Source: a virus (taxonomy: Duplodnaviria; Heunggongvirae; Uroviricota; Caudoviricetes). From it: a stretch of 46,389 nucleotides of DNA. Shown here piece by piece: positions 40,995 to 42,885 of this stretch. The DNA lies in the IMG/VR virus record IMGVR_UViG_2850808358_000009. One strand, 5' to 3'. Position numbers and translations under genes: made by a program. Each line of letters opens with the position of its first letter. Within the stretch, counting starts at the first letter, position 1. The notes below the pieces were generated by a model. The model was not told where the DNA came from. It ran no database searches and was given only the letters and a program-made list of their open reading frames with translations.

Positions 40995-41253
40995 ACGTGA
41001 AAGCCTTATCGAAAAGCACCTCGTCGCTGAAGTGAAAAAAGCTGGCGGAGTGGCCTTTAAGTTTGTATCTCCCGGTCACCGCTCGGTACCGGATCGCATT
41101 GTCCTGCTACCAGGTGGTCGTATCGTTTTCGTTGAATGTAAATCTCCCGGCAAGCCACCACGGCCTGACCAATTGCGCGAACATGAACGTCTGCGAAAAC
41201 TGGGCTTTACCGTAGTGGTGCTGGATAGCAAAAATCTGGAGGGAATATTGTGA
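40984..41253 (+). CDS. VRR-NUC domain nuclease
   Basis: About 89 aa from the internal ATG; PDRIVLLPGGRIVFVECKSPGKPPRPDQ resembles the VRR-NUC core. Confidence 0.6.
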   Translation: MAYERESLIEKHLVAEVKKAGGVAFKFVSPGHRSVPDRIVLLPGGRIVFVECKSPGKPPRPDQLREHERLRKLGFTVVVLDSKNLEGIL

Positions 41254-41387
41254 AAAAATCAGATGAGCACTTACAGTTTAAATTACGGGTCCCCCGCGCA
41301 TTAGCGGAGGAGTTAAAGAAAACAGCAAAGAAAAATATGCGTTCAGTAAATGCAGAAATATTATTCAGACTTACAAACACAAACTAA
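41250..41387 (+). CDS. Arc-like ribbon-helix-helix protein (not in ORF track)
   Basis: Manual translation from GTG after a GGAGGG SD: VKKSDEHLQFKLRVPRALAEELKKTAKKNMRSVNAEILFRLTNTN; pattern parallels P22 Arc (QFNLRWPREV...GRSVNSEIYQRV). Confidence 0.55.
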   Translation: MKKSDEHLQFKLRVPRALAEELKKTAKKNMRSVNAEILFRLTNTN

Positions 41388-41728
41388 TCATCTTCACTCT
41401 TTGTGGGGTTCAAATAGCTTATAATTAAGCTATATAACCTCTCATTTTCCTTATCAAGTTTATATTTTTCTTTGACAAGCTTAACAAAGCCTTTTTTATA
41501 TTCATCACCATGTTCAGATGATTCCAAAAAACGCTTCCAGGTATTACTATCTGATAACTCCCCCTCGGAATCTTTATATGTTATGTGAACTAAAACATTA
41601 AAGCTTTCTTTGAGACGATGGAGTACTTCCGCATTCATAGACCGCTTATTTTCCAGAGCTGCTTTTTCTAACTGCGCTTTCAGCTCCGCAGGTAAACGGA
41701 TCTTCATCTGTGCATCTTCACGACTCAT
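41384..41728 (-). CDS. Mnt-like ribbon-helix-helix repressor with C-terminal extension
   Basis: N-terminal MKIRLPAELKAQLEKAALENKRSMNAEVLHRL RHH motif; start moved to the ATG with a GAGGTG SD; divergent from the operator region. Confidence 0.6.
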   Translation of the reverse strand: MSREDAQMKIRLPAELKAQLEKAALENKRSMNAEVLHRLKESFNVLVHITYKDSEGELSDSNTWKRFLESSEHGDEYKKGFVKLVKEKYKLDKENERLYSLIISYLNPTKSEDD

Positions 41729-41764
41729 AGCAAACACCTCATAAACTCAATCACCAAATTATGC

Positions 41765-41826
41765 ACCACGGTGGTGTTGACATCAATGAACCACGGTGGT
41801 TTACTAAAAATGAACCACCGTGGTTC
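41765..41826. promoter_or_regulatory. Three palindromic operators overlapping a TTGACA promoter between the Mnt-like gene and the Rha operon
   Basis: CACCAC-G-GTGGTG, AACCAC-G-GTGGTT and GAACCAC-C-GTGGTTC centred about 24 bp apart; TTGACA at about 41777..41782. Confidence 0.55.
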
Positions 41827-41842
41827 TATCGAGGTTAACGCT

Positions 41843-42019
41843 ATGGCTATTCAGATCACGCAGTTACATCAGGCAGATATTTTCGGGTATATCGCGGACA
41901 TGCTGGAAACAGCAAGACTTCTCAGTTCGCTGGAAAAAGGAGAGCAGTTAGCTTTTGAATTGATTTATTTTGCGCAGCAGGCCGCAAGGGAAGCTGCAAA
42001 CAAGCCGTGGGATGAATAA
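41843..42019 (+). CDS. Hypothetical small protein, first gene of the operator-controlled operon
   Basis: About 58 aa from an internal ATG just downstream of the operators. Confidence 0.4.
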   Translation: MAIQITQLHQADIFGYIADMLETARLLSSLEKGEQLAFELIYFAQQAAREAANKPWDE

Positions 42020-42078
42020 ACAAAACGCGCTGATAGTTGCAGCTACCAGCGCATCTTTTACTGAATGAAGAATACAGC

Positions 42079-42885
42079 ATGAATACTTTAACACTGATAA
42101 ACGATACCAAGCAACCAATGATGGGCAGCCGGAAAATTGCAGAAGTCACTGGCAAACAGCATAAGCATGTTGTACGGGATATTCTGGCTATGCTTGAACA
42201 GTTACAAATCTATAGTCCAGATTTGGATGATGATGATTTTAAAGGATTTATTATCAAGCGCAAAGAATACAAGGGACGTGATGTCATCGACGAGATTTGG
42301 CTTGATGAAAATCTTTCCATGACTCTCGTCACCGGTTACGACGCAAAACGCCGGCTGGCACTCATCGAACAGTGGCAGGCGATGAAGATTGAATTAGAGC
42401 AACCTCGTCCGGCATCATTACCAGTGCCAACTCCTGCAATTCAGGTAAACGACAACATCGTTCAGTTTGCCCGTGTCGTTGCAGAAGCTACGGCATCCGC
42501 AACGATGAAAGCAATTGTCGAAGTGATGGCTCCCCGGCAAGTTCAAAACGTAACGCTTTCAACTCTGGGACATGAAACCAACTGGGTAGAAGACTTAAAA
42601 CAACAAGTCAGAGAGTCACAACCACACAGTAACGGTGAATATGTCCCCGTCAGCAAAGCAGCATGGAAAACAGGTTTATCTGATTCAACATGCCGGAAAT
42701 TGATCGGCTTCGCCAGGATACCGGTACGTTCAGACACCGGTGTTCGGGGATTGCTCGTTAAGCTCCCAGCGATCGAACAAGCAGCTCAAAAGCTGTTAAA
42801 CGAATCGACACCGCCGAAAGGTAACCGCAAGCGCTGGACACATCCGCAGTTTGGCAACTTCACCTACTACACCGATCTAATCTGA
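42079..42885 (+). CDS. Rha-family phage regulatory protein (ORF6N domain, antirepressor-like)
   Basis: N-terminal GSRKIAEVTGKQHKHVVRDI matches the Rha/ORF6N signature as recalled; start moved to the internal ATG. Confidence 0.6.
   Translation: MNTLTLINDTKQPMMGSRKIAEVTGKQHKHVVRDILAMLEQLQIYSPDLDDDDFKGFIIKRKEYKGRDVIDEIWLDENLSMTLVTGYDAKRRLALIEQWQAMKIELEQPRPASLPVPTPAIQVNDNIVQFARVVAEATASATMKAIVEVMAPRQVQNVTLSTLGHETNWVEDLKQQVRESQPHSNGEYVPVSKAAWKTGLSDSTCRKLIGFARIPVRSDTGVRGLLVKLPAIEQAAQKLLNESTPPKGNRKRWTHPQFGNFTYYTDLI

Follow-up and report, generated by a model that had tools for sequence, protein, structure and literature searches.

Two related ribbon-helix-helix genes and three palindromic operators in a probable P22 immI-like cassette of an Escherichia coli prophage

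In the IMG/VR record IMGVR_UViG_2850808358_000009 (a Caudoviricetes virus), whose whole stretch of 46,389 nucleotides (nt) is called here the window, we analysed a group of four genes and a control region between positions 41250 and 42885, which we call the cassette and which probably works in a way similar to immI of phage P22. It consists of a short gene for an Arc-like ribbon-helix-helix (RHH) protein (45 aa, plus strand, 41250-41387), a longer RHH gene of Mnt-like architecture (114 aa, minus strand, 41384-41728), three palindromes in the control region, an open reading frame (ORF) of 58 aa (plus strand, 41843-42019) and a Rha-family gene of 268 aa (plus strand, 42079-42885), indicated below as the payload. 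All the features that the original prediction had described for positions 41250-42885 were present there. The profile searches for RHH and Rha domains that it had proposed as a check placed all three proteins above the Pfam cut-offs.

By the curated Pfam threshold for Arc (PF03869, 20.4 bits) both RHH proteins are members of the Arc/Mnt family, with 38.1 bits for the short and 41.0 bits for the long protein. Against PDB, the short protein matched the chains of P22 Arc (E=3e-5) and the long protein matched Arc (E=0.004) and Mnt (E=0.007). Across the RHH the two proteins are 50% identical to each other, a similarity that is visible in the DNA too as the inverted repeat I1, and the long protein is 31% identical to P22 Mnt. 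The beta-strands are LQFKLRVP in the short and QMKIRLP in the long protein; when aligned, QFKLRV and QMKIRL fall on the Arc strand QFNLRW, and the outward-facing strand residues Q-K-R are common to both proteins.

The short gene starts with a GTG that overlaps the TGA stop codon of the upstream VRR-NUC gene, as originally predicted, with the ribosome-binding site GGAGGG 7 nt upstream, and it is translationally coupled to that gene. It had been described as unannotated, which does not hold for public records since RefSeq annotates all five genes, this one as 'Arc family DNA-binding protein' (WP_000747893.1) on identical DNA.

The long gene is convergent with the short one, their 3′ ends overlapping by 4 nt, and its product is an RHH head followed by a helical tail of about 70 aa. 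The prediction of a larger, convergent, Mnt-like gene was hence correct for the Arc/Mnt-type head and not for the C-terminal domain of Mnt: the Pfam model of this tetramerisation domain (PF11423, Repressor_Mnt) had no match in the long protein, whereas P22 Mnt scores 72.9 bits. The AlphaFold2 monomer model of the long protein, obtained from a 10-sequence alignment, had a predicted local distance difference test (pLDDT) value of 52, with a helical tail and no strand predicted, and its quality did not permit a fold search. Unrelated tails replace this one in Serratia, in Xenorhabdus and in other Salmonella loci.

With respect to the Salmonella copies of the cassette, in which synonymous sites are near saturation (proportion of synonymous differences, pS, 0.45-0.87), the ratio of nonsynonymous to synonymous substitutions (dN/dS) was 0.10-0.17 for the short gene (pS 0.45-0.78), about 0.10 for the long gene and 0.06-0.14 for the 58-aa ORF. 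Ratios so low at nearly saturated synonymous sites mean that the three small ORFs are real protein-coding genes under purifying selection.

The 58-aa ORF encodes an acidic, helical protein and is the first gene of the repressed operon and a constant partner of the cassette. It had no match in Pfam, PHROG, NCBIfam or PADLOC. Its relatives are limited to E. coli, Shigella, Salmonella and Serratia, and Xenorhabdus has a 58-aa ORF in the same position. A scan of one genome per species found nothing for it, and a scan of metagenomes found one locus. Between this ORF and the payload gene there is a hairpin (42027-42052) that is conserved in all the E. coli and Salmonella cassettes, its minus-strand T-tract being the stronger one; in some copies (for example L002; labels of this form indicate the loci fetched for comparison) the hairpin is the exact reverse complement of the window version. 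A sar-like antisense RNA at the hairpin was considered and set aside, since there was no conserved minus-strand promoter and no Rfam match.

The three palindromes, of the form ACCAC-S-GTGGT, all lie within 60 bp in the control region: O1 (CACCACGGTGGTG) at 41764-41776, O2 (AACCACGGTGGTT) at 41789-41801 and O3 (AACCACCGTGGTT) at 41813-41825. They are the sole matches to this pattern in the 46 kb, even with one mismatch allowed, while base composition would give about 0.02 exact matches by chance. No arm other than ACCAC forms three palindromes of the 5-N-5 form anywhere in the window, and in none of 200 shuffles was there a triple of palindromes with the same arm within 70 nt.

The putative promoters stand back to back over these sites. 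For the leftward promoter of the long RHH gene (minus strand, 41758..41786), found by a consensus scan and with its elements conserved in the loci of the type called A below, the -35 box is TTGATG (41786-41781) and the -10 box is CATAAT (41763-41758), with a spacer of 17 nt that is filled by O1. A rightward promoter (plus strand, 41777..41807) was read from the sequence, with the -35 box TTGACA at 41777-41782, between O1 and O2 and overlapping the leftward -35, and an imperfect -10 that could be either TTTACT (41800-41805, 17-nt spacer) or TACTAA (41802-41807, 19-nt spacer). O2 covers its spacer and -10, and O3 extends from about +1 to +14. The TTGACA box and the three palindromes over it, both of which had been predicted, are therefore present; the -10 is the weak part, and since a stricter scan did not call this promoter we infer it only. 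The motif TTGAC is kept in both cassette types though their operators differ, which supports a promoter in this position.

We aligned eight distinct control regions of type A. No variation was seen in the arms of the operators, in the -35 box or in the -10 region, while the central base of the palindromes varied, as did the distance between O2 and O3 (from 24 to 30 nt); the arms of O1 are invariant across E. coli, Salmonella and Serratia. The operators are intact while the synonymous sites of the flanking genes are near saturation (pS up to 0.87).

A decaying cassette was also observed, in E. coli LH50-c (L003, 2096-2340): its long RHH gene carries the annotation of a truncated pseudogene and its O3 has degenerated (GGACCGCAGTGGTTC), with O1, O2 and the short gene retained intact.

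On the basis of the RHH heads the fetched loci fall into two types. In type A the RHH heads have Q-x-K-x-R on the strand, in the window in both proteins, and every such locus has two or three ACCACNGTGGT sites, confined to the control region; these loci come from E. coli, Salmonella (with three different tails), Serratia, Xenorhabdus and a Variovorax-like contig. In type B, from E. coli and Salmonella, both RHH proteins start with SKRDDPQLRVRIP, corresponding to Q-R-R, and palindromes of the form CCTCA-NNN-TGAGTAC occupy the same promoter positions as the type A sites. Each type B locus has two exact CTCANNNTGAG sites, except L051, in which one is exact and the second has one mismatch. No crossover of head and operator between the two groups was found among the fetched loci, and cassette-free loci have neither ACCACNGTGGT nor CTCANNNTGAG in the corresponding place. 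The 58-aa ORF of type B is identical or nearly identical to that of type A.

The type A head is found with varied tails (three in Salmonella and E. coli together, one each in Serratia, Xenorhabdus and the Variovorax-like contig), varied payloads and varied flanking DNA, yet with a constant palindrome. The joint change of head and palindrome, perfect from locus to locus, provides strong though indirect evidence that the heads read their palindromes and that the short protein itself would be a DNA binder at the same sites as the long one. The loci form in this way a natural data set for relating RHH reading residues to the operator, Q-K-R going with ACCAC-N-GTGGT and Q-R-R with CTCA-NNN-TGAG. 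No third specificity type came from the one-genome-per-species scan, the metagenome scan or the scans of viral contigs, the last of which returned types A and B only.

The four genes and the control region travel together. In the window, as in L020-22, L049, L056 and L058, the cassette lies between the VRR-NUC gene and the SNF2 helicase gene, while in L019, L023-25, L046 and L051 it lies after SNF2, beside xis and int. In every locus the start of the short gene overlaps or abuts the stop of the upstream gene, and in all loci the 3′ ends of the two RHH genes are at most 20 nt apart, so that there is no space for a terminator between them. Among 5426 complete E. coli genomes, only 19 have the cassette, while 154 have this phage family's VRR-NUC gene. 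The same CI gene (nucleotide identity ≥99%) accompanies a type A cassette in some cases and a type B cassette in others, or stands without any cassette, and the cassette is thus independent of the primary immunity region. For the same reason a specific pairing of payload and CI was considered and dropped.

As regards the slot between VRR-NUC and SNF2, it is also a hotspot of other cargo in related phages (L006 4259-5932; L052 3785-4702; upstream genes of L003 and L005). Strain CREC-544 has there three minus-strand genes, including a PDC-S42 candidate defence protein, and phage vB_EcoM-611R5 has a 305-aa gene without known identity; TIR-domain genes occur in nearby slots of other relatives. In E. 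coli STEC1590 (L053, NZ_CP129345.1 1310300-1325000) a prophage of the same family carries a type A cassette and stx2b, the latter downstream of a Q antiterminator and a tRNA-Arg, and this DNA-polymerase-encoding phage family therefore includes Shiga-toxin converters.

The payload was predicted to be of the Rha family, and Pfam agrees: it matches Phage_pRha (PF09669) over residues 15-103 with 41.4 bits, the cut-off being 29.9 bits. It remained below the cut-off of the narrower NCBIfam model TIGR02681 (21.7 against 45.95). Its structural model has a confident N-terminal domain (10-107, the Rha winged helix), a low-confidence linker and a confident C-terminal domain (187-265). The latter models as a winged helix-turn-helix (HTH) of the MerR/Xis type, so that the payload would have two domains of DNA-binding type. 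Among the relatives the N-terminal domain is mosaic and the C-terminal one is conserved. The position of the payload is taken by a Rha gene in E. coli and Salmonella, by KilA-N+ANT in Serratia and by Bro-N in Xenorhabdus. Domains are known to be shuffled among Rha, Bro-N and KilA-N/ANT proteins, and the PHROG labels of these proteins are commonly 'antirepressor'. It seems fair to call the payload 'Ant-class', bearing in mind that an antirepressor activity is unproven and would follow from family labels; the modelled domains make a DNA-binding role at least as likely.

Taking these data together, we consider that the region is a self-contained, accessory, P22 immI-like cassette at the end of the early operon of a temperate phage controlled by CI and Cro, with two paralogous RHH repressors acting on three common operators. 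We give to this reading a probability of about 0.6. In the lysogen, CI would silence the early operon and no short protein would be produced. The long protein would be expressed from the leftward promoter, with autoregulation through O1, and at O2 and O3 it would keep the rightward promoter shut, like Mnt. The rightward operon, blocked in this state, would comprise the 58-aa protein and the Rha payload, probably with read-through into SNF2 and xis.

During infection of a naive cell, or when CI is lost, the rightward promoter would fire briefly. Early transcription would in the meantime supply the short protein and proceed antisense through the long gene, across the 4-nt overlap of the 3′ ends and with no terminator. 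Given the coupling of its start to the stop codon that ends the early genes, the short protein would be made only during transcription of the early operon, and by filling the same operators it would allow only a pulse of payload and 58-aa protein, in the way that Arc restricts Ant. The most likely division of labour is thus a Mnt-like action of the long protein in the lysogen and an Arc-like action of the short protein in lytic growth. In addition, a phage arriving in a cell with a cassette of its own type would have its payload operon silenced. Such a second immunity would explain why the specificities have diversified, and an immunity-like function agrees with there being two specificity types. 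Support comes also from L059, which combines the P22 gene order with the same operators, and from phage D6, whose 'anti-repressor Ant' is a two-domain relative of the payload (both are described below).

Several points weigh against this reading. It is not obvious what the short protein would add if both RHH proteins repress, and it could instead antagonise the long one. That the long protein oligomerises through its tail is only an analogy, given the low-confidence model (pLDDT 52) and the absence of PF11423. The position of arc is held by a 58-aa ORF that matches no family, and the poor -10 of the rightward promoter escaped the stricter consensus scan. Finally, most of the loci are near-duplicates, corresponding to about eight independent lineages with only two specificities.

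A different role of the payload is possible, though we lean against it. In this case the payload would be a transcription or DNA-architecture factor (Roi/Rha-like or excisionase-like) that serves the lytic development of its own phage, and the RHH pair would only time it. In fact, full-length homologues with 50-57% identity occur in prophages of Yersinia, Klebsiella and Serratia, in ordinary one-directional early operons near xis and int and without RHH genes, and phage genes annotated as Roi or as DNA-binding protein are distant relatives with two domains. On the other hand, the cassette is dispensable, as seen from the same CI with type A, type B or none, and the payload can be exchanged with KilA-N+ANT or Bro-N, which argues against a single specific essential DNA target; diversified repressor specificities are, moreover, typical of immunity systems.

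The main rival, which we regard as unlikely, is that the short protein counteracts the long one, either by forming mixed dimers that lack one tail or by competing non-cooperatively for the operators. Early induction would in this case turn on the rightward operon, with a payload that reinforces induction or hits other prophages. Heads that are 50% identical make mixed RHH dimers plausible, all loci place the short gene under early transcription, and convergent transcription would also reduce the synthesis of the long protein. A pure poison subunit, however, needs no reading residues, while the short protein keeps Q-K-R across lineages (with dN/dS of 0.1-0.17) and in type B switches to Q-R-R together with the operators. 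These kept residues argue against a pure poison subunit and not against operator competition.

A broader scheme, to which we likewise give little credit, joins such a relay to the immunity function: the cassette would be a portable second immunity with at least two heteroimmune specificities and a relay of 'two repressors, one operator code', in which, when CI fails, the tail-less paralogue from the early operon, helped by convergent transcription, replaces or displaces the tailed repressor that maintains lysogeny, and this toggle releases a burst of a swappable Ant-class protein acting in trans on other prophages, also in Stx2b-converting phages of the family.

Still less probable, in our opinion, is a cargo for warfare or defence, with a 58-aa protein and a payload that target competing phages or are toxic to the host, and an RHH pair that acts as a safety lock of toxin-antitoxin type. 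The VRR-NUC/SNF2 slot does hold variable cargo, as the PDC-S42 candidate of CREC-544 and the 305-aa gene of vB_EcoM-611R5 indicate, TIR-domain genes are present in neighbouring slots, and the cassette is rare (19/5426). Nevertheless, PADLOC gave no credible match for the four proteins, the only one being a marginal match of the long RHH protein (PDLC03500 REase_II, E=0.0036, 14.9 bits); the architecture and the operator closely match P22 immI, and the wiring of the short gene into the early operon suggests integration in the phage life cycle. The last option, that ORFs and palindromes are functionless chance features, has in its favour the small size of the ORFs only and is refuted by the conservation data: purifying selection on all three small genes, curated Pfam thresholds passed by both RHH proteins, a palindrome cluster never reproduced in shuffles, and a cassette conserved across genera.

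As regards its genomic context, the window is a prophage of E. coli: 2 kb of sequence around the cassette are 100% identical to the chromosomes of E. coli O121 strain 201805972 and of two other strains, where they are adjoined by the host gene yfhL and by a tyrosine integrase. The primary switch is formed by a CI-like gene with HTH and S24-peptidase domains (plus strand, about 30602-31230) and a Cro-like HTH gene that faces it (minus strand, 30270-30557). The long rightward early operon starts at about 32550 and includes genes for DUF2800, a DUF2815/Enc34-type ssDNA-binding protein, Bro-N, DNA polymerase A, a second Bro-N/'Ant', an ANR/PerC-like protein, DUF4406 and VRR-NUC, with the cassette at its end. 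The VRR-NUC gene (PD-(D/E)XK nuclease; plus strand, 40984..41253; a weak match to Pfam VRR_NUC, and 'PDDEXK family nuclease' in RefSeq) is the final gene of the early replication operon before the cassette. On the 3′ side there are the SNF2 gene (plus strand, 42929..44323, Pfam SNF2-rel_dom), which belongs to the replication module of the phage and is outside the cassette, then an HTH_17 gene and then the integrase. Neither a terminator nor a called promoter was found in the interval between Rha and SNF2.

We also observed that the CI-like gene of the window is one G short in a G-run near 30791: in a comparison with the 12 complete E. coli genomes listed in full, of 26 matching, 701 query bases aligned to 702 bases of the record. 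The counterpart, annotated as a LexA-family protein of 209 aa, was intact in both records examined, while in the window CI is split into an HTH-only ORF and a separate S24-peptidase ORF (30775-31230). The missing G is either a sequencing error or a real frameshift, and the latter would alter inducibility. The motif TTACAGGTTTNCTTGTA is present twice, at 30512-30528 between CI and Cro and at 31342-31358 past the CI terminator, where it overlaps a TTGACG box and is followed by about 250 nt without a convincing ORF (31340-31600). These copies may be CI operators, the second one perhaps in control of a transcript that is not translated.

The Rfam family sRNA-Xcc1 (RF02221) is matched twice on the plus strand, both times above the gathering threshold. 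The first (35517-35603, 70 bits) is at the 5′ end of the longest ORF of a Bro-N gene (35479-36417), and the second (39522-39612, 66 bits) is inside a 240-nt gap immediately 5′ of a Bro-N 'antirepressor-like' gene (39654-40430). Each may represent a leader or a regulatory RNA for these other Ant-class genes.

If the preferred model of a P22 immI-like cassette is true, the logic of immI would extend beyond P22-like podoviruses in the form of a portable cassette, carried by unrelated temperate phages that encode a DNA polymerase (in E. coli, Salmonella, Serratia and Xenorhabdus) as well as by the Variovorax-like contig. The wiring would be a rearranged one, with the Arc-like repressor within the early operon, one operator code for both repressors and interchangeable payloads. 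Since at least one relative carries stx2b, an additional layer of induction control could bear on toxin release. Our literature searches found no description of this arrangement.

We finally compared the cassette with known systems. With regard to P22 immI, both have the gene of a larger Arc/Mnt-family repressor, pointing away from the promoter that serves an Ant-class gene, and a second, small repressor of the Arc family. In both, palindromic operators lie within overlapping promoters, with one operator immediately 3′ of the rightward -10. The central nine bases, CCACGGTGG, of the P22 Mnt operator (AGGTCCACGGTGGACCT) are the core of O1 and O2. In both cases the region is accessory and a Peptidase_S24 (LexA-like) domain is part of the main CI-type repressor. 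The differences, which are considerable, are in the order and in the parts. Here the small repressor gene stands upstream, where the early operon ends, and points towards the long gene, whereas in P22 arc is the first gene of the ant operon and provides negative feedback, a position that is occupied here by the 58-aa ORF, in which no RHH was matched. In P22, Arc and Mnt differ in specificity and have an operator type each, while here there is one palindrome type, present three times, with shared reading residues. The promoters overlap fully in P22 and stand here back to back, with overlapping -35 boxes. P22 Ant consists of PF10547 and PF10548 (P22_AR_N and P22_AR_C) and the payload matches PF09669 only; the PF11423 tail of Mnt is absent here, and no conserved minus-strand promoter like that of sar was found.

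One locus bridges the two designs. In L059, the Variovorax-like contig (from Logan), the long RHH gene diverges, across three ACCACGGTGGT-type sites, from a 56-aa Arc-family gene followed by a Rha gene, that is, the canonical P22 order with the same operators. In the Arc-family protein of this locus (2216-2386) the strand is AVMLRLP, different from the QMKIRLP found in its long partner, and yet the control region shows ACCACGGTGGT-type sites only. The original prediction of an immI resemblance, with a different gene order and Rha in place of Ant, is therefore sustained in its layout, and the operator core and the order in L059 make the resemblance closer than it had stated; what was not recovered are separate Arc and Mnt operators, the Mnt tail domain and a conserved sar-like promoter.

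Phage D6, which has an immI of P1 type with an icd-ant operon, carries an 'anti-repressor Ant' gene directly after an icd-like gene, as ant in P1 immI. Control of P1 immI occurs through the c4 antisense RNA. D6 Ant is a distant, two-domain Rha-family protein that aligns with the payload across both domains (23% identity, pairwise E=4e-11) and shares its C-terminal KRW-HP-G-F motif; unlike the cassette, D6 has no RHH (Arc-family) repressor gene annotated in the stretch examined. The function of D6 Ant is assigned by position and similarity only. In phage records, the closest relatives of the payload that bear a name are called Roi, DNA-binding protein or anti-repressor. Rha of phi80 and Roi of HK022 and of Stx phages have the N-terminal Rha domain (PF09669) in common with it, but they belong to ordinary early or late operons with no dedicated RHH lock.

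The antirepressors of the Gifsy phages, of phage 186 (Tum) and of N15 are presented in PMC8044961 (citing Lemire 2011, Shearwin 1998, Mardanov and Ravin 2007) as separate small units whose product can flip the switch in trans. The likeness is one of concept, a small transcription unit apart from the main repressor gene. In those phages there is host LexA control and the antirepressors are unrelated to the payload, whereas here the lock is encoded by the phage and has at least two specificities, and no LexA box was noticed, with no search aimed at one. Overall, the cassette is not a new principle: its genes are routinely annotated, the principle is that of P22 immI, and the arrangement is a variation of it.

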